NCBI GenBank assembly: GCA_934254715.1 | Contig: CAKQLT010000001.1 | Coordinates: forward strand, 4,095-68,094 | DNA length: 64,000 bases | From: an uncultured Clostridia bacterium | GTDB taxonomy: Bacteria > Bacillota > Clostridia > Christensenellales > CAG-917 | Reading direction: 5' to 3' | Shown: piece by piece, positions 2,921-55,410 of the stretch | How positions within the stretch are numbered: the stretch's first letter is position 1 | How the letters are laid out: each line of letters starts with the position of its first letter | Position numbers and translations under genes: made by a program | The notes under the pieces: model-generated | What the model saw: only the letters and a program-made list of their open reading frames with translations | Database searches by the model: none | What the model was told of the DNA's origin: nothing

Positions 2921-3367
2921 TCACATCTTGCCCGTGCTGCCGAAGCCGCCTTGTCCGCGGTCGGTGTCGGTTAAGTTTTCCACTTCTTCAAAGTCTGCGA
3001 CAAAACAAGGGGCAATCACAAGTTGCGCAATGCGTTCCTTATCCTCTATGGTTTGAGGCTCGTCCGAATGGTTGTGCAAAGACACGATAATTTCGCCTCT
3101 GTAATCGCAATCGATAACGCCAACTTTGTTTGCGGGCGCAAGCGAGCGTTTGCTTGCAAGTCCGCTTCGAGCATACACGAGTCCGACAAGACCGTCGGGA
3201 ATCTCGATTGCAACGCCCGTGTGTACGAACACGGTTTGATGAGGCTGAACGGTGATTGCTTTCCCCTCGCAAGCGTACAAGTCCGCCCCCGCGGAAAACT
3301 GCGTGCCGTATTTGGGTATTATTGCGTTTTCGTTCAGTTTTTTGAGTTTTACGGATACGTGTTGCAT
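2921..3367 (-). CDS. dut: dUTP diphosphatase
   Basis: dUTPase motifs AGADLYA, VIDCDYRGEI and RGQGGFGSTG are present. The ATG at 3367 (MQHVSVKLKKL) is preferred over the GTG at 3382 used by the ORF track. Confidence 0.9.
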   Translation of the reverse strand: MQHVSVKLKKLNENAIIPKYGTQFSAGADLYACEGKAITVQPHQTVFVHTGVAIEIPDGLVGLVYARSGLASKRSLAPANKVGVIDCDYRGEIIVSLHNHSDEPQTIEDKERIAQLVIAPCFVADFEEVENLTDTDRGQGGFGSTGKM

Positions 3368-3381
3368 AGTTTTTGTTTTCA

Positions 3382-3590
3382 CAGCGATATTGCACTTATG
3401 GTGCAGTGATATTGTCTTACGACAGCGATATTGTTGCTTCGCAACAGTGATATTGCGACTTTGTCGCAGTTGCGGAATATTTGAATTATTTCATATGTCA
3501 TTCAGAGAAGCAACATCGTTGCGACGTAGAAATCAAGGCGACAGCCGCATTTCGCTACGCTGGATTCCCACGCTTACGCTCGGAATGACA
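3382..3590 (+). repeat. composite structured intergenic repeat, copy A (4 tandem RYGATATTG+hairpin units, then gttgcggaatatt, then a tgtcatt...gaatgaca palindromic core)
   Basis: The units are cagcgatattg[tgcac-ttat-ggtgca], gtgatattg[tc-ttac-ga], cagcgatattg[ttgc-ttcg-caa] and cagtgatattg[cgac-tttg-tcg]. The core shares gttgcggaatatt, tgtcatt, ccgcatttcgctacRctggattcc and gaatgaca with copy B at 46719-46949, in the same orientation. Confidence 0.6.
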
Positions 3591-3730
3591 GCGAATCATT
3601 CGGCTTCGCAGCCGCCCAAACGATGCTCGTAGACAGGCGGAGCCGAACAATATAGAACGACGAAGAATCGTTGTGAGCATCCACTTCCGCCGTTGCAACT
3701 GCCGAGCCGCCTCAAAGTTGCAACCCCTTA

Positions 3731-3764
3731 TGTCACAAACAAATGCTCTGATTTGTTTGTGACA
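3731..3764. other. perfect 14-bp-stem hairpin in the guaA-dut spacer
   Basis: tgtcacaaacaaat-gctctg-atttgtttgtgaca. There is no flanking U-run on either strand, so it is not an obvious terminator. Confidence 0.4.
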
Positions 3765-3784
3765 GGACGTTTGCGCCAAAATAT

Positions 3785-3816
3785 TTGTCAAGCCATCTTG
3801 AAAAGATGGGTGACAA
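3785..3816 (-). terminator. probable guaA terminator
   Basis: On the minus strand the sequence reads ttgtcacccatctt-ttc-aagatggcttgacaa followed by atatttt. It sits immediately 3' of the guaA stop. Confidence 0.45.
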
Positions 3817-3841
3817 GTGTTTTGCATCCGGCGCAATTATA

Positions 3842-5365
3842 TTATTCCCATTCGATAGTCGCCGGGGGCTTCCCCGTCACATCATAGCACACGCGGCTTA
3901 TGCCTTTCACTTCGTTGACGATGCGCGACGCCATTTTCGTGAGCAAGTCGTATGGCAAGCGAGTGTATTCCGCCGTCATAAAGTCGGACGTGGTGACCGC
4001 TCTTATCACGACGACGTAGCCGTAGTTGCGGTAGTCGCCGATTACGCCGACCGATTTCGTGTCGGTGATGACTGCAAAATATTGGTCGGATTTGATTCCG
4101 CTTGCGGCGATTTCTTCACGCACGATTGCGTCCGCGTCGCGCAAGACGTCGAGTTTCTCTTTGGTTATTTCGCCGATAGTGCGGATTGAAAGTCCGGGAC
4201 CGGGGAAGGGTTGACGATTGACGAGATAGTCGGGCAAACCGAGTTTTTTGCCGATTATGCGCACTTCGTCTTTGAAAAGTCCGCGCAAGGGTTCGACAAG
4301 ACCCGTGAACGGCATATCTTTGGGCAAGCCGCCGACGTTGTGGTGGCTCTTGATGTTTGCCGAGTTGTTTGCGCCCGATTCGATGACGTCGGGATAAATC
4401 GTGCCTTGCGCAAGGAAGTCGTATCCCTTTTGCGCGTTTGCAACTTCCGCAAAAGTCTTTACAAATTCCTCGCCGATAATTTTTCTTTTGCGTTCGGGGT
4501 CGGTTACGCCTGCGATTTTGGAAAGGAATTTCTCGCTTGCGTCCACGACTTCGAGTTTGAGGGGAAGGGGCGCAAACGCTTCTTTGATTTGTTTGGTTTC
4601 GTCCTTGCGCATAAAGCCGTGGTCGACGTACACGCACAGAAGTTGGTCGGGAATGGCTTTGCTTATGAGAGCCGCCACGACTGAACTGTCAACGCCGCCC
4701 GAAAGACCGAGAAGAACTTTCTTGTCGCCGACTTTTTCGCGTATGAGTTTGATTTGGGTGTCGATGTAGTCGTCGAGCGAGTAGTCGCGCGTTGCGCCGC
4801 ACACGTTTATGACGAAGTTTTCAAGCACCTTGTTTCCGTTGAGCGAACGCTCGACTTCGGGGTGGAATTGTACGCCGTAAATATGTTTTTGCTCGTTTGC
4901 GATTGCCGCGCACGGACAATCCGACGTGGTTGCCACAACCTTGAATCCGTCGGGAACTTGCGCAACGTAGTCGGTGTGGCTCATAAGCATTTCTTCTTCG
5001 TCCGAAAGACCGTCGAAAATCGCGCAGTCGCCGATGAAAACTTTTGTTTGACCATACTCGCGCACCGTGCCTTCCTTTACGACGCCGCCGAAAGAGTGGG
5101 CGATGTACTGCATACCGTAGCATATGCCCAAAATGGGTACGCCCAAATCGAACACGGCTTTCGAGCAACGCGGCGAATTTTCGAGATAAACGCTGTTAGG
5201 TCCGCCCGTAAATATAATGCCGATAGGGTCGATTTCTTTGAGTTTTTCCTCTGAAATGCAAGACGGCTCGACGACGGAATACACGTTCATTCTGCGCACC
5301 GAGCGCGCGATGAGTTCCTTGTATTGTCCGCCGAAATCCAGAACGAGAATGGTTTGGTTTTTCAT
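3842..5365 (-). CDS. guaA: GMP synthase (glutamine-hydrolysing)
   Basis: There is an N-terminal amidotransferase region (GICYGMQ, FHPE), an ATP-pyrophosphatase SGGVDSS loop and a C-terminal GKPPATIEWE. The ORF-track start at 5545 is trimmed to the ATG at 5365 (MKNQTILVLDFGGQY), which is preceded by AGGAGA. Confidence 0.95.
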   Translation of the reverse strand: MKNQTILVLDFGGQYKELIARSVRRMNVYSVVEPSCISEEKLKEIDPIGIIFTGGPNSVYLENSPRCSKAVFDLGVPILGICYGMQYIAHSFGGVVKEGTVREYGQTKVFIGDCAIFDGLSDEEEMLMSHTDYVAQVPDGFKVVATTSDCPCAAIANEQKHIYGVQFHPEVERSLNGNKVLENFVINVCGATRDYSLDDYIDTQIKLIREKVGDKKVLLGLSGGVDSSVVAALISKAIPDQLLCVYVDHGFMRKDETKQIKEAFAPLPLKLEVVDASEKFLSKIAGVTDPERKRKIIGEEFVKTFAEVANAQKGYDFLAQGTIYPDVIESGANNSANIKSHHNVGGLPKDMPFTGLVEPLRGLFKDEVRIIGKKLGLPDYLVNRQPFPGPGLSIRTIGEITKEKLDVLRDADAIVREEIAASGIKSDQYFAVITDTKSVGVIGDYRNYGYVVVIRAVTTSDFMTAEYTRLPYDLLTKMASRIVNEVKGISRVCYDVTGKPPATIEWE

Positions 5366-5562
5366 ATGTTCTCCTACAAAGGTTAATTCGATATGTATAT
5401 ACAAAAGTTTTGACGTATATAAAAGATTATATCTAATTCTTCGCCCAAAGAAAAGCGGATTGTAAAACAAAATAGAATTAATGAAAAATAAATGTCGCGA
5501 GGATTTGCCGACCGAAACAAACGACGATTTGCTAAATATGACCAAAACGACGGTTTATATTG

Positions 5563-26249: not shown

Positions 26250-26957
26250 ATGAATTATATCGATCCGCTTGCAAAACTTATGGGTGAATGGTCGTGGAAC
26301 GTTACGGTCTATTCCATACTTCTCAGGGTTATCGTGCCCTTTATATTCGCATTCTACGTCGGGTGCGAACGCTCGACCAAAGGTCACACCGCGGGGCTTA
26401 AAACCTTCATTTTGCTCTCGCTTGCCTCTACGTCGTGTATGATTATCGACAGGTCCTTGGGTCTTACGTTCCCGATTTGCTCGGCGGGCGCGGTTATAGG
26501 CTCGGCTATGCTCGGCGGCAATTCCATACTTTTCGGCGCAAAGAACCAAATCAAAGGACTTACGACGTCGGCGTGGCTTTGGACGTGCAGTATCTTCGGC
26601 TTGCTTTTCGGCGCGGGATTGTACACCGTCGCGCTCATTCTCGCCGCCGTGTATATCGTGATTTTGCAGTTCTTCCCGACCCTCGAAAAGTATCTCAAAC
26701 AACGCTCTAATCACTTCGAGTTGCACCTCGAATTGCTCAACAAAAACGACTTGCAATCCTTTATGACAACGTTGAGAGAACTCGGAATGCGCATAGACGA
26801 CGTGGAACTCAACTCGGCGTTTATCAATTCGGGATTGAGCGTGTACGCACTCAAACTCACCATTGAAAGCAAGGAACTCAAAAAGTACAAAACGCACGAC
26901 GAAATCATCGAGGCGTTGAGAAGCATCGAGTATATACACTACGTCGAAGAGAAATGA
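26250..26957 (+). CDS. MgtC/SapB-family membrane protein
   Basis: RVIVPFIFAFYVGCERSTKGHTAGLKTF (the MgtC G-x-ER-x-x-x-x-x-AG-x-RT-like motif) followed by a C-terminal soluble ACT-like domain. Confidence 0.8.
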   Translation: MNYIDPLAKLMGEWSWNVTVYSILLRVIVPFIFAFYVGCERSTKGHTAGLKTFILLSLASTSCMIIDRSLGLTFPICSAGAVIGSAMLGGNSILFGAKNQIKGLTTSAWLWTCSIFGLLFGAGLYTVALILAAVYIVILQFFPTLEKYLKQRSNHFELHLELLNKNDLQSFMTTLRELGMRIDDVELNSAFINSGLSVYALKLTIESKELKKYKTHDEIIEALRSIEYIHYVEEK

Positions 26958-26971
26958 AAACTTTAATTATC

Positions 26972-27033
26972 AATTAATAATTAATAATTAATAATTAATA
27001 ATTAATAATTGCGGGTGGGCTTTGCCCACACCC
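26972..27033 (-). repeat. AATTAAT heptamer microsatellite (5.5 copies) abutting a GGGTGTGGG...CCCACCC hairpin
   Basis: aattaat x5 plus aatt (26972-27010), then gcgggtgggctttgcccacaccc. The same hairpin plus AT-repeat module occurs inverted at 46650-46700, and a related AT repeat lies at 47026-47078. Confidence 0.6.
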
Positions 27034-27080
27034 AAAAACAACAAAAAAAACAAAAAATCAAAATAAAAAAAGCGTGATTC

Positions 27081-34543: not shown

Positions 34544-34690
34544 AGGAATCAACTAAAAATGCGCCAAGCGGATGAATAACGCGAAAGCACCCCTCGATTG
34601 ACAACCCTAATTTACTGAGCGTAAATGAGTTGGCAAGCAAGGGGTGCTGACAAAGTTAGTCGCCGTTTGGCGCGTTTTTAGTTGATTCCT
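34544..34690 (+). other. 147-nt rod-like extended hairpin overlapping the gdhA stop (candidate structured RNA or hairpin-type repeat)
   Basis: A 28-bp closing stem (34544-34571 with 34663-34690). Its only two non-Watson-Crick positions are G-U on the plus strand and A-C on the minus strand. Inside it are a 15x15 internal loop, then stems gcacccct/aggggtgc, ttgacaac/gttggcaa and tttac/gtaaa, with the apical loop tgagc. Confidence 0.5.
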
Positions 34691-46649: not shown

Positions 46650-46700
46650 GGGTGTGGGGTGCAACCCCACCCAAAATTATTATTAATAAAATAAAAATTT
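46650..46700 (+). repeat. GGGTGTGGGG...CCCCACCC hairpin plus AT-rich attatta tract
   Basis: gggtgtggggtgcaaccccaccc followed by aaaattattattaataaaataaaaa. This is an inverted counterpart of 26972-27033. Confidence 0.55.
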
Positions 46701-46718
46701 TCTTTACTATTAAAGAAA

Positions 46719-46949
46719 TGATATCGCCTATGGCGGTGATATCACTTCGTGATGATATCGTGTATTTCTGCACGATGATATCCAAACTCTGTTTGGGTTG
46801 CGGAATATTCAATTTATCCGCTTGTCATTGCGAGGCGCAACGAAGTTGCAACGCGGCAATCGAGGCCGTCCGGCCGCATTTCGCTACACTGGATTCCTAC
46901 GGTCACTTCGTTCCCTCTGAATGACATATGGAAGATTTAAATATTCCGC
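46719..46949 (+). repeat. composite structured intergenic repeat, copy B
   Basis: Four units of tgatatc plus a hairpin (gcc-tat-ggc; tcac-ttc-gtga; tcgtg-tatttctg-cacga; ccaaac-tct-gtttgg). These are followed by gttgcggaatattcaattta, then tgtcattgcgagg...ccctctgaatgaca, closed by tttaaatattccgc (the reverse complement of gcggaatattYRaat). Confidence 0.6.
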
Positions 46950-46951
46950 TT

Positions 46952-46976
46952 GCGTGCGCAGCACGCTTTCTGTTTT
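46952..46976 (+). terminator. plus-strand intrinsic terminator 3' of repeat copy B
   Basis: gcgtgc-gca-gcacgc followed by tttctgtttt. This would place copy B inside the 3' UTR of the EIIC-like gene. Confidence 0.55.
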
Positions 46977-47025: not shown

Positions 47026-47078
47026 AAGGCTTCGCCTTCCAAAATTATTAATTATTAATTATTCATTATTAATTAAAA
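47026..47078 (+). repeat. small GC hairpin plus ATTATTA/ATTAATT AT-repeat tract
   Basis: aaggc-ttc-gcctt followed by ccaaaattattaattattaattattcattattaatt. Confidence 0.5.
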
Positions 47079-49941: not shown

Positions 49942-50040
49942 ATCAAAAGTTAGCGGTTTAACAAGATTTTGATTCAAACCGAATCGAAGGGAGAATGGCG
50001 GAGATTTGGTGGAGATAAAACTTCATTTGGGAGGTCTTTT

Positions 50041-51303
50041 ATGGACAAGACGATCAAATGCCCCAATTGTGGGGAAGTGTTTGACAATGTAGACAATGAA
50101 TTTTTGAAGTGTTCTCATTGCGGCAAAATGTACAAAAACCCTTTTTATAAGAATGACGACACAGTCAAACAAGAACCTCAACCCGAACAAAAGCAGTCCG
50201 TGCAAGAAACGCAACCAACCAAAAGCGAGTGCGAAGCGCACGTCGACGGTGTCGGTGCAGATTTCGCAAATCGGCAACATACTACCACAGCCGAAGAAAT
50301 GAGTGAAAATCATACTGCGAAAACGCAAAACATCAATTCCGAAATTGATTCGAAGCAAACGGAAACGAAGGTTGAAAAGTCTGAATCGAGCAAGAAAGAA
50401 AACGCTTTTCAAAACAGAGGAAGCGACGCATTTATGCTCGTTATTACCAACACGATAAAAGAGTTTTTTGAATTCAAACAATTCAAGAGAATTCCCATAG
50501 GTCTTGCGATAGCCGCAGGCATTTTGCTTTCGCCGTTTTTGCTTGCTGTTATTTTTATGATTCCTGCGTTTTACATTTTGCAGTTCTGCTTCAAAATCGT
50601 TGCCGCACCTGCGGATTACCTTCTTCAAAACCTTCGCGATGAAAGCGATAATGCGATTGTGAAAGCCGTTGTATATTTCGTCGGTTATCCGTTTGTGTTT
50701 TTGATGAAAATCGCACTTTCCGCATTCAGTGTTGAATTCTTCGTTATGTACTTTTTCTTTATGCTGTTTGCTTGGATTTATGGCTGCGGCGGAATAAAAT
50801 TTCAACCTTTTATATTCGAGGCGTCAACCGATTGTAGTGCGCATCTCGAAGGTAAAGCGTCCACGAAGACCATCGCAATCATTCTCACCGTATGTATTAT
50901 CATCGGCGTGCTTATTTTTGGTTTGGCACTTGGCTTAGGCCTTGCAAATGCGGATTTCGACCACGGCAGTAGTGGTAACGGCGGATATAACAATGGCGGC
51001 AATAATAACATTTATAAAGATTCTTTCAATGAGAGTTTTTATATGTCGTCGCACGATAGTGGTCAAAGAATATGGACTTTCACGCCATCGACAAGCGGTT
51101 ATTACGAAATCAAAATTTTCGATAACGATAATAGAGCAAGCATTTATGTCTTTGTGGATGGTTCTACCAAATTGAGCACGACTTATTATAGCGATTCAAC
51201 CTCTATGTATTTGTATTCTGGAACGTCGTACACAATCAAGATTTATTATAGCAACGACAATTCAAGTAGCGATAGTGTGAATATCAGCATTTCACAAAAA
51301 TAA
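50041..51303 (+). CDS. zinc-ribbon / multi-TM / PPC-like C-terminal domain protein
   Basis: The ATG at 50041 follows GGAGG. Zinc ribbon: CPNCG...CSHCG. It continues with a polar linker, about 5 TM helices and a G/N-rich linker. The C-terminal WTFTPSTSGYYEIKIFDNDN...YSGTSYTIKIYYSNDNSS fits the PPC beta-sandwich pattern. Confidence 0.75.
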   Translation: MDKTIKCPNCGEVFDNVDNEFLKCSHCGKMYKNPFYKNDDTVKQEPQPEQKQSVQETQPTKSECEAHVDGVGADFANRQHTTTAEEMSENHTAKTQNINSEIDSKQTETKVEKSESSKKENAFQNRGSDAFMLVITNTIKEFFEFKQFKRIPIGLAIAAGILLSPFLLAVIFMIPAFYILQFCFKIVAAPADYLLQNLRDESDNAIVKAVVYFVGYPFVFLMKIALSAFSVEFFVMYFFFMLFAWIYGCGGIKFQPFIFEASTDCSAHLEGKASTKTIAIILTVCIIIGVLIFGLALGLGLANADFDHGSSGNGGYNNGGNNNIYKDSFNESFYMSSHDSGQRIWTFTPSTSGYYEIKIFDNDNRASIYVFVDGSTKLSTTYYSDSTSMYLYSGTSYTIKIYYSNDNSSSDSVNISISQK

Positions 51304-51722: not shown

Positions 51723-51962
51723 TTTGGATTCCTCCGTGTTTTTTTACGTCGAATGTTGTAACACTTATTTTACGCAATGTCAAGTATATGCAACTTAAAG
51801 TTGTTTTTGTGTATATTTATAAAAACGAAATTTTAAGCGGATATTTCGGAAGGTCAACGGATATTTGAGGACGGATATTTGAGGGCGGCGAAAAGTTGTT
51901 GCGTGCGTTTACAAAAACGCAACTTTCGACGGACGGTTTAACGGCGGCGGCAAAAGTTGTTG

Positions 51963-51991
51963 TTGTGAAAAACGTCGCGCGGTGATATAAT
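51963..51991 (+). promoter_or_regulatory. candidate fhs promoter
   Basis: TTGTGA, a 17-nt spacer with an extended TG, then TATAAT, 32 nt upstream of the ATG. Confidence 0.5.
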
Positions 51992-52022
51992 TTTCGTATC
52001 TACAAAACACGGCGGTGGTAAT

Positions 52023-53708
52023 ATGGCAAATACGGCGTACAAATCCGACATCGAAATTGCGCAAAGCGCGAAAATGCTTCCTATATGCGACGTGGCGAAA
52101 AATTGCGGTATCGACTGCGAACTTTTGGAAAACTACGGCAAATACAAAGCGAAAATCGACTATGCCCCCGTTCTGAAAAAGGGCGGTAAAAAGGGCAAAC
52201 TCGTGCTTGTCACCGCAATCACCCCGACGCCTGCGGGCGAGGGTAAAACCACCACTACGATAGGACTTGCCGACGGATTAAGGCGTATAGGCAAAAAGGC
52301 GATAGTCGCGCTTCGCGAGCCGTCGCTCGGTCCGGTGTTCGGAATCAAGGGCGGCGCGGCAGGCGGCGGATATGCGCAAGTCGTGCCTATGGAAGACATA
52401 AATCTGCATTTTACGGGCGACTTCCACGCAATCGGCGCGGCAAACAACTTGCTTGCGGCAATGCTCGACAACCATATTCAACAAGGCAACGCGCTCTCGA
52501 TAGACCCTCGCAAAATCACTTGGAAAAGATGCGTAGATATGAACGACAGACAACTGCGTTTCGTCGTTGACGGACTCGGCGGAAAAGCGAACGGCACGCC
52601 GAGAGAGGACGGCTTCGACATCACGGTTGCAAGCGAGGTTATGGCGGTTTTGTGCCTTGCCGATTCGCTTGCGGATTTGAAAGAAAGACTTTCAAAAATC
52701 ATAGTCGCGTATACTTACGACGACAAGCCCGTGACTTGTGCGGATTTGAAGGCGCAAGGCGCAATGGCGGCACTCTTGAAAGACGCGTTGAAACCAAACC
52801 TCGTGCAGACGCTCGAAGGTACGCCGGCACTCGTTCACGGCGGACCGTTTGCCAACATCGCGCACGGCTGCAACAGCGTGATTGCAACCAAAACGGCACT
52901 TTATCTATCCGATTACGCTATCACAGAGGCTGGTTTCGGCGCAGACCTCGGCGCAGAGAAGTTTTTTGACGTCAAGTGCAGAAAGGCAAATCTCGTTCCC
53001 GACGCCGTTGTGGTCGTGGCAACCGTACGCGCGCTCAAAATGCACGGCGGTATGCAAAAACAAGACCTCGCAACCGAAAATATCGAGGCTCTCGAAAAGG
53101 GTATCCCCAACCTTTTGCGCCACGTTTCAAACGTCAAAAACGTGTTCAAACTTCCTTGTGTGGTGGCGATAAATCGCTTCCCGACGGATACAGACAAAGA
53201 GATAGAATTCATCACTCGCAAGTGCGAGGAACTCGGCGTAAACGTGCGTTTGTCCACGGTTTGGGCGGACGGCTCGAAGGGCGGCGAAGCACTCGCAAAA
53301 GAGGTGGTGCGCCTTTGCCAAAAGGAAAAGGGCGAGTTTGAATTTGCATACGCCGACGAGGATTCCATAACCGAAAAAATAGAAAAAGTCGTGCGCAAAG
53401 TCTACGGCGGCGACGGCGTTTCGATTACGCCCGCCGCGCAAAAGCAAATCGCAAATCTCGAAAAGTTGGGATTCTCAAATTTGCCCGTGTGCATTGCAAA
53501 AACGCAATATAGTTTTTCCGACGACGCAACGTTGCTCGGCGCGCCGAGCGGATTTACGGTGACGGTCAAGAACGTAAAAGTCAGCGCGGGCGCAGGCTTT
53601 ATCGTGGTGCTTACGGGCGAGATTATGACGATGCCCGGGCTTCCCAAATCGCCAGCCGCAGAGCGAATCGACGTGACCGACGACGGCAAAATAATCGGTT
53701 TGTTCTGA
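52023..53708 (+). CDS. fhs: formate--tetrahydrofolate ligase
   Basis: [23 protein letters not shown] and [18 protein letters not shown] are hallmark FTHFS motifs. Confidence 0.95.
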
Positions 53709-53724
53709 TTTGAAACGTAACAAA

Positions 53725-53750
53725 AATCCGCCGAAAACGGCGGATTTTTT
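53725..53750 (+). terminator. fhs intrinsic terminator
   Basis: aatccgccg-aaaa-cggcggatt followed by tttt. Confidence 0.75.
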
Positions 53751-53807
53751 ATGCGTTTTTATATTCGTTTACGATGTTTTTTATGAGGCTTTATATTGAT
53801 TTTTATA

Positions 53808-54038
53808 TTATATTTCTTTAATACCCAAAATATAGTCGCTCGAAACGTCGAGAACGCGGCATAGTTTTGCAAGCGTGTCGAGTGCGGGAAAAATGTCCTT
53901 TTTCATATACTTCGACACGGTTTGAGGGGATACGCCGATTTGGCGCGCTATTTCTTTTTGTTCGATTCCGCTACTCTTTATTGCGTCGCGCAATCTTTGT
54001 TGTATATCTTTCAGTTCCATACCGACATAATCGCACAT
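53808..54038 (-). CDS. XRE-family helix-turn-helix regulator
   Basis: IEQKEIARQIGVSPQTVSKYMKK is a classic Cro/CI HTH. 70-76 aa, with the start at 54020 or 54038. Confidence 0.85.
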   Translation of the reverse strand: MCDYVGMELKDIQQRLRDAIKSSGIEQKEIARQIGVSPQTVSKYMKKDIFPALDTLAKLCRVLDVSSDYILGIKEI

Positions 54039-54082
54039 TGGGTGATTTTTATCTTGACAATCGTATATTAGGTGATTATACT
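54039..54082 (+). promoter_or_regulatory. promoter with flanking direct repeats (candidate XRE operator)
   Basis: TTGACA (54054), a 17-nt spacer, then TATACT (54077). The repeat ttRggtgattWt occurs at 54039 and 54068, bracketing the -35 and covering the -10. Confidence 0.5.
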
Positions 54083-54115
54083 GAACGTAGATAATTTTAT
54101 TATGAGGGGGATTTT

Positions 54116-54355
54116 ATGGGATTATTCGGCAAAATCAAGCAATATGTCACCGATATCGTTTCGGACGAAATCTCGCCGTGTGTTTGTCCGCATTGCGGAT
54201 TCCGCATAAGGACGGAAAAAATCAAAATCAAATGTTGCGATTGCGGTGGCGTAAATACAATCAGATGGGTGGGAAATCTGCCCGTTTGTATGAAGTGTAA
54301 CGGACATTATTATGAAAGATTTTGTCCTAAATGCGGGGGTAATTTAGATGATTGA
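54116..54355 (+). CDS. small four-CxxC zinc-ribbon protein
   Basis: GAGGGGG ribosome-binding site. 79 aa with CPHC, CCDC, CMKC and CPKC pairs. Confidence 0.7.
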   Translation: MGLFGKIKQYVTDIVSDEISPCVCPHCGFRIRTEKIKIKCCDCGGVNTIRWVGNLPVCMKCNGHYYERFCPKCGGNLDD

Positions 54356-55172
54356 CAAAAGAAAAAAGGTTTTAACGATTTTGGTTTTGATTGCGGTTTT
54401 GTTTTCGGCGTTTGCCGTTTTGAGCGGCTGCAGTCCCGAAGACAGTTCTTGGCCGCCGCGAGCATTGACGAAAAAGATAACGTTAACCGTTCACGTCGAC
54501 GACGAAACGTACAAAGTGGACGCGTACGTCGGAAAGGAAGTAAGCGTTGCAATGCAAGCGATTACGGCAAAAACGGGTTATTATCTGACGGGATATTACG
54601 ACAGCGAAAGCGGCGGACAAATGTATTTCGACAGCGACGGTCAGTCGGTGAGCGTATGGTCAAAGAGTTATCCCACCGAGTTTTATGCGCAGTGGGAAAG
54701 CGTCGATAACTTCGTGTTGGCGAACGGCGCGAGTTGGAAAGATACGTACAAATACTTCGGCGAGCGTTATTTGACGTTCCATTGCACGGACGGCTTCAAA
54801 AGAAGCGCGATTGCGGGCAACAGGTCAAGAAACGTGCATATAACCTTAAGTTTCAAGATTCAATGTCCGGCGTATGCGGGATTTGGCAACGACCCGAACA
54901 AAGACATTGACCGAGCGGTGTTTATTACAGACAAAAACGATTCGACGGCGGAAATATATGCGAAAAAATATTTTACCGTGCACGGACTTGAATACAACGA
55001 GTTTTCACTCGACTTTACCGTAAGCGCAAGAGTCTTCACCGAGAGCAGTTTCAACAACAAAAAATCTTTGGCTGTGTATCTCAAATGGCTCGGAAGCGAC
55101 TACTATCCGACGTATATCAAGGACGTAAAAATTTCTTGTTACATAATGCCGAACGAAAGCGGTAATATGTGA
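54348..55172 (+). CDS. lipoprotein with a Listeria-Bacteroides-type repeat
   Basis: 8-nt overlap with the zinc-ribbon gene. Lipobox LSGC. KTGYYLTGYYDSESGGQMYFDSDGQSV...FYAQW matches the Flg_new/InlB B-repeat pattern. Confidence 0.75.
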   Translation: MIDKRKKVLTILVLIAVLFSAFAVLSGCSPEDSSWPPRALTKKITLTVHVDDETYKVDAYVGKEVSVAMQAITAKTGYYLTGYYDSESGGQMYFDSDGQSVSVWSKSYPTEFYAQWESVDNFVLANGASWKDTYKYFGERYLTFHCTDGFKRSAIAGNRSRNVHITLSFKIQCPAYAGFGNDPNKDIDRAVFITDKNDSTAEIYAKKYFTVHGLEYNEFSLDFTVSARVFTESSFNNKKSLAVYLKWLGSDYYPTYIKDVKISCYIMPNESGNM

Positions 55173-55195
55173 GTCGAGTTATAAACAAAAAGCAA

Positions 55196-55223
55196 AAGGC
55201 GGGGATTTCCCGCCTTTGTTTTT
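55196..55223 (+). terminator. intrinsic terminator
   Basis: aaggcggg-gattt-cccgcctt followed by tgttttt. Confidence 0.7.
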
Positions 55224-55410
55224 GCGTGGGGTGGTTTTGAAAAAATATTTGTAATTGTTTTATTTGCGAATGGAAAAAACCTTTTGTAGGTTGTATAATG
55301 GATTAAAGATTCAACGGAACGAGTGCAAACGAAACGAAAATTGCAAGGGCGTGTTCGTAAATCACGACCCGACCGTACAAGAACAGATTATTGAAATATA
55401 GAGGTGAAAT

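Follow-up and report, generated by a model that had tools for sequence, protein, structure and literature searches.

A 64,000-nt stretch of DNA from an uncultured Clostridia bacterium (Christensenellales, CAG-917; assembly GCA_934254715.1, contig CAKQLT010000001.1; from here on the window) contains two intergenic spacers, one between dut and guaA (copy A) and one between a phosphotransferase system (PTS) EIIC gene and a histidine kinase gene (copy B), which are assembled from the same kinds of parts. On balance, they probably belong to a modular repeat system akin to repetitive extragenic palindromic (REP) elements, BOX elements and miniature inverted-repeat transposable elements (MITEs). The sites would be mosaics of separable hairpin-forming intergenic modules, belonging to one gut Clostridia lineage, with a GIY-YIG nuclease as partner. 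The parts are a tandem array of short hairpins between constant boxes (array A, 3384-3468; array B, 46718-46796), a junction, GTTGCGGAATATT, which is identical in both copies and forms the array side facing the core (3469-3481 and 46797-46809), and a palindromic core with inverted arms TGTCATTC...GAATGACA (core A, 3496-3590; core B, 46823-46926). All are read on the plus strand. The arrays are of the type known as Gut-1 in the Rfam database.

Modules swapped, inverted and interrupted at the DNA level

Contigs in which the Dut protein is identical over all 148 residues nevertheless carry two haplotypes of the spacer upstream of dut. Haplotype 1, that of the window and of L245 (L numbers designate the loci and contigs compared), has a GTGATATT-type array with GYGATATT boxes. 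Haplotype 2, found in six contigs (L246-L251), has a GATGATATC array and an extra module of ~235 nt. The dut leaders differ as well: haplotype 2 provides a GGAGG ribosome-binding site (gccggaggcaatATG), and the window-type leader (3368-3383, gtgaaaacaaaaactATG) has no recognisable Shine-Dalgarno sequence. The swapped segment extends from the start codon of dut to the junction; the core beyond the junction is orthologous. In another species (L021) the core lies inverted at the same dut-guaA spacer.

Other spacers present a similar picture. Between ruvC and ruvA, L009 has four hairpin units and L002 has eight, with an internal duplication; the number of units does vary between relatives, as the first-pass annotation of the window, made from its letters only, had considered possible. 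In the spacer after ruvA, L002 carries arrays on both sides of a forward core, L009 a reversed core and no arrays. At the copy-B locus of L006 a 128-nt element is nested in a core arm, and an extra Gut-1 array, above the Rfam threshold, follows the core. Filled and empty versions of a site are seen in the pairs L017 versus L005 and L020 versus L016, and the insertions abut or split a GGGTG...CACCC hairpin or the GGAATATTCC palindrome. These observations demonstrate exchange, duplication, inversion and interruption of whole modules in the DNA, both within a species and between closely related ones. They further show that the junction GTTGCGGAATATT and the core arms are the boundaries of exchange.

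The 128-nt element of L006 (6498-6622, minus strand) is inserted behind TGTCATTGCG in the core's terminal arm, and it abuts core arms in L001 and L018. Apparently this is another small mobile element, one which targets core ends. Another module of ~160-190 nt, containing ctaaccgcgcagagaatttgcgctatcagttcaagcacggataaaa and cagtttcgctatatcgcttgcttggtg, is present or absent at orthologous sites (L008, L010, L016, L020, L023, L025) and occurs in haplotype 2 of the dut spacer (L246-L249), where it is flanked by a direct duplication of ~47 nt. It has no Rfam match at the gathering threshold.

The relatives were collected by an exact-match scan with a conserved 22-mer of the core, one genome per species. 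The core is present in two copies in the 64-kb window, and its 22-mer at 25 loci in 11 gut metagenome-assembled genomes (MAGs) named Christensenella sp. UBA, 'Phascolarctobacterium', 'Butyrivibrio', 'Anaeroplasmataceae' and Firmicutes CAG:238. In the coding flanks L006, L011, L021 and L022 have 92-97% nucleotide identity to the window; thus, the MAGs belong to one lineage and some of the bin names are unreliable. The oddities concern L006, L016, L017, L018, L022 and L023. MAGs labelled Phascolarctobacterium succinatutens and Anaeroplasmataceae are 92-97% identical to the window across housekeeping genes, and these names look wrong. The same holds for MAGs labelled Butyrivibrio crossotus, which share repeat modules and align with other loci of the set.

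Array and core had been described as fused to each other. Among 31 arrays at loci of the lineage, a core or core fragment lies at most 120 nt from the junction (3') end in 20 cases and from the 5' end in two; choosing loci that hold a core biases how often the two adjoin, but not on which side. The core has the same orientation as the adjoining array in 16 cases and is flipped in four. Arrays without cores and cores without arrays both occur. Array and core are adjacent, separable modules, not one unit.

The palindromic core and its nuclease gene

The core is a non-coding sequence of 95-104 nt. Related DNA of ~300 kb holds 46 full or partial copies, which takes the count far beyond the two known from the window. 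Core A (inverted repeat I5) is an imperfect palindrome with outer arms of 12 nt that are 92% complementary. Twenty-five full-length cores align well. The covariation term of their consensus fold is -0.08: double changes are seen only in two small internal hairpins (GCAAC/GTTGC and GGC/GCC), and the outer arms mix variants (GCGAG, CAGAG; CTCGG, CTCTG) without compensation.

In L024 a core copy is split, exactly between GCCGCA and TTTCGC, by a 273-nt open reading frame (ORF) on the opposite strand. Its predicted product has 90 aa and matches the GIY-YIG catalytic domain (Pfam PF01541, E 1.6e-17). Joined in silico, the flanks give 100 nt which align end to end at 80% to core A and at 83% to core B. 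In copy A the gene would sit between 3549 and 3550, in copy B between 46878 and 46879. Eight further gut contigs (L223-L230) encode an 83%-identical protein, again enclosed by lineage-specific core halves. In nine of nine contigs the gene occupies one position, between a giant surface-protein gene and csoR-copA. Gene-less core copies lie near it, one of which retains a remnant of the leader. The core is thereby shown to be the gene-less form of a palindromic element bearing a predicted GIY-YIG nuclease gene.

The family search retrieved 2185 homologues of the protein. One of 71% identity exists on contigs of the Anaerocaecibacter muris type, i.e., in a second Clostridia genus; behind it stand half-cores in tandem, with the sequence peculiar to that lineage. 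Palindromes of the TGTCATTCTGAG...CAGAATGACA type adjoin this homologue and also those in Planktothrix and in an Ignavibacteria MAG. The solved structures nearest to the protein are those of uncharacterised UPF0213 proteins (1zg2, E 1e-4), and this weak match by itself places the 90-aa protein, putatively, in the Slx1/YhbQ/YazA group of URI domains. An NCBIfam search gave it no family name. A literature search on GIY-YIG together with MITE or REP, on COG2827/UPF0213 and on the terminal sequence yielded no paper on this gene-repeat association, and the link between core and nuclease gene appears to be undescribed in the searchable literature. A coding 'master' copy between facing arrays was considered and rejected: the sole case, 4.6 kb in L009, consists of the housekeeping genes hpf, pgi, an ABC ATPase gene and ruvC.

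Hairpin arrays and the Gut-1 motif

Units were pooled from the hairpin arrays of the lineage and from ~25 further gut contigs found in a metagenome scan. A unit consists of GTGATA followed by a stem which is closed by the last T of the box and the A ahead of the next box. The stems are perfect and 5-8 bp long; loops have 3 nt in 42 units and 4 nt in 26. Four boxes with perfect hairpins, the junction and the palindrome had been claimed for the two sites, and direct reading confirms them at both. Chance is no explanation, as 90% of 81 distinct units, versus 0.17% of shuffled ones, form a perfect stem, flush with the boxes and 5 bp or longer. Watson-Crick pairs make up 529 of 530 stem pairs, i.e., G·U is nearly absent. 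An asymmetry of G·T versus A·C was rejected as a test for the strand, being powerless with stems almost devoid of non-Watson-Crick pairs.

The pooled units have 52 different stem sequences. The stems of copy A (tgcac, tgtc, gttgc, gcgac) stem from a vocabulary which other arrays reuse in shuffled order (ctcgc, cgcac, gcgac, gttgc, ttttgc and others). Differences between stems are therefore not compensatory changes in place; units recur ready-made. This goes against reading the stem differences within and between copies, noted earlier, as compensatory evolution. In the copy-B-type module the stems are fixed: over 13 aligned homologous copies pairing holds in 96% of cells, and covariation scores 0.036, the same as the mean of shuffles. 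When the divergent L002 is excluded, the remaining 12 copies have variable columns in 11 of 15 loop positions, 5 of 37 stem positions and 10 of 41 positions of boxes and junction. Hairpins and boxes are thus shown to be under constraint and loops to drift, which upholds the view that the hairpins are maintained. What is missing are the classical signatures of RNA: tolerance of G·U pairs and covariation between homologous copies. One recurrent array unit, CCTCACTKYGYTCGG, is not a hairpin; it stands between ordinary boxes (L002, L024, L050, L127) and is conserved across different lineages.

In copy A the flanking genes are as previously assigned, dut at 2921-3367 and guaA at 3842-5545, both on the minus strand and both identified by Pfam. 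Array A (repeat family D2) comprises four Gut-1-type units, each a GYGATAT box with a T-closed perfect hairpin: GCGATAT at 3384-3390, GTGATAT at 3406-3412, GCGATAT at 3425-3431 and GTGATAT at 3447-3453, spaced by 22, 19 and 22 nt. The hairpins are TGCAC/GTGCA with a 5-nt loop (3391-3405), TGTC/GACA (3413-3424), TGTTGC/GCAACA (3432-3446) and TGCGAC/GTCGCA (3454-3468). The first box is 16 nt away from the start codon of dut on the opposite strand. The junction resembles an expanded box, GT-tgcg-GA-a-TATT, and its variants GTTGTGGATTATT and GTTGAGGAAGATT terminate arrays at related loci. The rest of the spacer is filled by a non-coding repeated module of ~250 nt (3593-3840, inverted repeat I1) with a perfect 14-bp hairpin at 3731-3764. 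Copies with 92% identity follow the same core at other, non-syntenic loci (L014, L019), and further copies in L015 have ~75-78% identity. The module has no Rfam match.

Copy B is situated between convergent genes, PTS EIIC on the plus and histidine kinase on the minus strand. Ahead of it lies a GGGTGTGGGGTGCAACCCCACCC hairpin (46651-46673) followed by an A+T-rich run, a recurrent companion module which is found beside arrays and cores at many loci. The four RTGATATC boxes of array B start at 46718, 46736, 46752 and 46775 on the plus strand; fixed stems enclose hypervariable loops. The hairpins are, in order, cgcc/ggcg, cac/gtg, cgtg/cacg and ccaaac/gtttgg, of which the third can be drawn with a 7-nt loop or, if a T·G pair closes it, with a 5-bp stem. 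Behind the core the junction returns as its reverse complement, AATATTCCGC (46940-46949, plus strand), which was overlooked earlier. It is followed by a single inverted hairpin unit, GCGTGC-gca-GCACGC (46952-46966, plus strand), and then by a T-rich tail, a terminator-like site in the scan. Equivalent right-hand junctions with inverted arrays are present in L002 and L021.

A 24-nt block common to both copies occurs twice in the window versus no occurrence expected in shuffles; the 13-mer junction alone is not significant in the window at two mismatches. When copies A and B are aligned, junction and core match, the arrays not meaningfully. Copies A and B, which had been taken for copies of one element, are two different array families on the same junction and core.

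The Rfam model of Gut-1 RNA (RF01706) covers 77 positions and has a curated gathering threshold of 50 bits. At permissive thresholds array A (3382-3458) scores 43.1 bits (E 3.1e-7, model positions 1-77) and array B (46716-46786) 36.5 bits (E 1.5e-5, all 77 positions). At the gathering threshold Rfam returns for the window two tRNAs only and no Gut-1. For the core nothing credible emerges at a permissive E-value; matches to snoR64 and to miRNAs are noise. Seven arrays at related loci (L003, L006, L008, L009, L013, L024) exceed the cut-off with 50.7-59.3 bits and mostly adjoin cores or core fragments. The arrays of the window are thus shown to be diverged, sub-threshold members of the Gut-1 motif family. 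The first-pass annotation had conceded that a match to a described Rfam family would remove the novelty. Such a match exists, below the cut-off, and taken alone the array is of low novelty, a divergent member of a catalogued family.

The original description of Gut-1 (Weinberg et al., 2010; PMC2864571) draws on 43 representatives, every one from a human gut metagenome; it assigns no function and judges the motif not to be cis-regulatory. In the model consensus, hairpins follow one another with GUGAAAU between them. In the published seed alignment GUGAAAU and GUGAUAUU linkers are both present, and inverted AUAUCAC arrays lie downstream (PMC2864571). A literature search for follow-up work gave nothing relevant after the 2010 paper. 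The window arrays share with Gut-1 at least three short hairpins of varying sequence between constant GUGAAAU or GUGAUAU linkers and the human gut habitat, and members above threshold exist in the lineage of the window. They differ by scores under the threshold, by four hairpins instead of three and, in copy B, by the linker GAUGAUAUC and very short stems. A neighbouring palindromic core, exchange of modules or a nuclease gene are not mentioned in the published description (PMC2864571).

Scans of metagenome and viral collections with three GTGATATT boxes mostly retrieved unrelated tandem repeats, which were rejected; this applies to all but one of the viral matches, and many were in giant-virus bins. 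True hairpin arrays remained at ~25 loci, including one viral contig (L150). In other gut lineages (L041, L085, L090, L113, L130, L150 and others) the GTGATATT array is followed by TTTATTCGCC and then by an inverted set of hairpins with AATATCAC or ATAAAAC separators. These loci end in a long hairpin, the stem of which varies from contig to contig yet remains complementary. This larger, conserved layout exceeds the 77-nt Rfam model. BLAST searches of plasmid and phage collections gave no match to either spacer of the window.

Possible roles, known systems and companion repeats

The first-pass annotation held a DNA-level or mobile role to be as plausible as an RNA role. This was sound, and the evidence now leans toward DNA: module swaps next to an identical Dut, inversions, nested insertions and a gene-carrying parent of the core. 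If the sites are indeed a modular repeat system with a GIY-YIG partner, the pairing would resemble that of REPINs (REP doublets forming hairpins) with RAYTs (REP-associated tyrosine transposases), or of insertion sequences (IS) with their MITEs, and the single-copy nuclease would act in trans. Its substrates would be hairpins or cruciforms extruded by the cores, perhaps also the hairpin arrays. Slx1-type enzymes cut branched and stem-loop DNA (PMC7017083), which fits palindromic substrates. Cutting may start repair or recombination by which modules are copied, flipped and exchanged. Perfect stems would be kept by recognition of the structure or by intrastrand templated correction, and loops would be free to vary. 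Like those of REP and BOX elements, any effects on transcripts, such as termination or the protection of mRNA ends, would come second.

Several points weigh against this modular repeat system. The action of the nuclease on the modules would follow by analogy with REPIN-RAYT and IS-MITE pairs, and to our knowledge no GIY-YIG protein is established as a transposase in bacteria. The pairs L017/L005 and L020/L016 show no clean target-site duplication. The fixed locus of the nuclease gene fits a domesticated partner and, equally, mere adjacency. The palindromes beside the homologues in Planktothrix and in the Ignavibacteria MAG may reflect the background density of such palindromes there. In other gut lineages arrays occur with no core nearby, and the link between array and nuclease is thus weak. 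The orientation of arrays to neighbouring genes is mixed, the gene on the 3' side is usually convergent, and between co-directional genes arrays tend to be antisense, as judged from small numbers and crude ORF-based gene calls. On the box strand T is the commonest loop base (T 165, A 75, C 71, G 35), a strand asymmetry which an RNA role would explain and shared ancestry of the units could explain too. One-sided stem changes in the 13 copy-B-type copies are exclusively U·G (3 cells, 2 events). Lastly, the discoverers of Gut-1 graded it a confident RNA ('RNA? Y'; PMC2864571).

The readings to be weighed partly overlap, since a repeat that acts as DNA may matter as a transcript, too. A wider proposal extends the modular repeat system to other phyla. 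It states that a small, structure-specific GIY-YIG nuclease (UPF0213/Slx1-like), single-copy and vertically kept, is the REPIN-RAYT-like partner of palindromes with TGTCATT...AATGACA-type ends which are widespread in several phyla, and that in the lineage of the window the same machinery maintains and shuffles Gut-1 arrays, which would be DNA-level cassettes and not RNA genes. We put this forward tentatively; it may well prove wrong. Conversely, the array could be a genuine structured non-coding RNA, made from the box strand with single-stranded GUGAUAU linkers, e.g., a protein sponge or scaffold, next to a core which is an unrelated selfish insertion. The last three points of the preceding paragraph, the Rfam match, constant linkers between maintained stems with free loops, the persistence of arrays at the same spacer despite replacement of the sequence family, and the different but complementary stems of the long terminal hairpins in other lineages all speak for such an RNA. 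It appears rather unlikely nevertheless. Sites found in consensus promoter and terminator scans do not rise above shuffles, and in copy A the position of the first box means that a promoter for a box-strand RNA would lie inside dut. Further, arrays occur in either orientation relative to genes and core, G·U is almost absent across the 52 stems, homologous copies do not covary, and whole arrays are exchanged like DNA cassettes.

Modules might also act in cis within mRNAs as exonuclease blocks, sites of termination or pausing, or processing sites, and so tune the expression of neighbours like REP elements, bacterial interspersed mosaic elements (BIMEs) and pneumococcal BOX. They are always located in spacers of housekeeping genes (guaA-dut, ruvC-ruvA, clpB-hpf, convergent ends), the gene 3' of the array is mostly convergent, and four hairpins directly precede dut in both haplotypes. 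Copy A folds better than its shuffles as RNA of either strand (z = -2.6 plus, -3.8 minus) and as DNA (z = -3.8). On the other hand, arrays have no fixed orientation to the transcribed strand. The two haplotypes equip dut with different ribosome-binding sites, none obvious versus GGAGG. A cis role would account for persistence and leave spread and the origin of the core from an element with a nuclease gene unexplained; we consider it unlikely as the principal explanation. Very improbable is the notion that a regulator or nucleoid protein binds the boxes as double-stranded DNA, at intervals of about two helical turns, the hairpins being incidental. Constant boxes of 7-8 bp at distances of 19-22 bp, and the palindromic GATATC of the copy-B type, would suit it. 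The spacing in fact varies between 19 and 26 bp without keeping a phase, the arrays have no regulator gene linked to them, and this reading would offer no account of the perfect palindromic spacers. Arrays of Fur or DnaA boxes and small ribozymes were rejected on anatomy.

Among known systems, REP/BIME and REPIN-RAYT come close (for an overview of REP elements see PMC3733652). In common are short hairpin-forming extragenic repeats, in arrays and in both orientations, which are kept at orthologous spacers, and a single-copy enzyme gene at a fixed locus flanked by repeats that are dispersed elsewhere. In contrast to REPIN-RAYT, the flanked gene encodes a predicted GIY-YIG nuclease (PF01541) and not a Y1/HUH RAYT, RAYT genes not having been searched genome-wide. 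In the Clostridia lineages the gene is inside the palindrome; a RAYT gene is between two REPs. The tag is GYGATAT or GATGATATC, unlike GTAG/CGTC in REP, and stems differ from unit to unit, whereas REP stems follow one consensus per family.

Pneumococcal BOX is modular, boxA-(boxB)n-boxC, with near-identical units of 45-59 nt. It shares the modular intergenic mosaic, the variable number of tandem internal units and a strong folding potential. We know of no sequence relationship of BOX to the modules described here and of no enzyme gene associated with BOX. With IS-derived MITEs the core has in common that it is short and non-coding with inverted termini, that it has many dispersed copies and nested insertions, and that a longer relative with the same ends carries a gene. 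Unlike in MITEs, the enclosed gene codes for a predicted 90-aa nuclease domain, not for a known transposase, the gene copy has a fixed chromosomal position, and no clean target-site duplication was found. GIY-YIG homing endonucleases and the Slx1/YhbQ/YazA URI family (PMC7017083) are similar in the small GIY-YIG catalytic domain, with UPF0213 proteins as nearest solved relatives. The 90-aa protein differs from I-TevI in having no DNA-binding extension. There is no intron and no phage context, and gene-less dispersal to many loci is not classical homing.

CRISPR arrays consist of identical repeats of 21-37 bp and unique spacers of similar length. The present arrays were rejected as such, having a total period of 19-22 nt with a constant part of 7-8 nt and a palindromic variable part. 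Type III antitoxin RNAs are near-identical tandem repeats followed by an endoribonuclease toxin gene. This candidate was rejected as well: here every stem differs and the neighbours are dut, guaA, PTS EIIC and a histidine kinase.

Gut-1 has been an orphan in Rfam since 2010, without organism, context or function. It now has a place in identifiable gut Clostridia genomes, as a module of a repeat mosaic that recombines and in which strains exchange entire arrays. With genome context and strain-level exchange at hand, the question of RNA gene or DNA element becomes testable in metatranscriptomes and natural haplotypes. The small GIY-YIG nuclease is a candidate partner for TGTCATT...AATGACA-type palindromes in Bacillota, Cyanobacteria and Ignavibacteria. 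If this is true, REPIN-RAYT would be joined by a second kind of association between repeat and enzyme, and some of the uncharacterised UPF0213-like proteins would gain a role. The finding is not categorically new; it does make an orphan Rfam motif and a common palindrome without a name accessible to tests. The modules account for long 'empty' spacers and are a likely source of spurious small ORFs and of trouble in assembly and binning of gut MAGs.

Further repeats accompany these modules. A+T-rich heptamer runs, (TAATTAA)n and (AATTATT)n, are located at 26956-27048 and 47039-47077 of the window. Together with GGGTGTGGG...CCCACCC hairpins they are companion modules in nearly all related loci, often bracketing arrays or cores, and are possibly bidirectional terminators. 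A separate palindromic element of ~145 nt at 34545-34690, with inverted ends of ~25 nt (AGGAATCAACTAAAAATGCGCCAA ... TTGGCGCGTTTTTAGTTGATTCCT), recurs in L014 and L019 in several copies of ~75-84% identity and seems to represent a further MITE-like family of the lineage. Compared with the otherwise collinear L006 (92-94% identity) the window has extra DNA at 49969-51303 and 51850-55320, with a formate-tetrahydrofolate ligase gene (52023-53708) and ORFs of 444 aa and 274 aa, both without a Pfam match. At 59-2833 the window encodes a 924-aa BspA-type leucine-rich-repeat protein with a 69-nt tandem repeat in the coding sequence (2032-2164); giant relatives, 1000 to 7000 aa in size, are encoded on other contigs.

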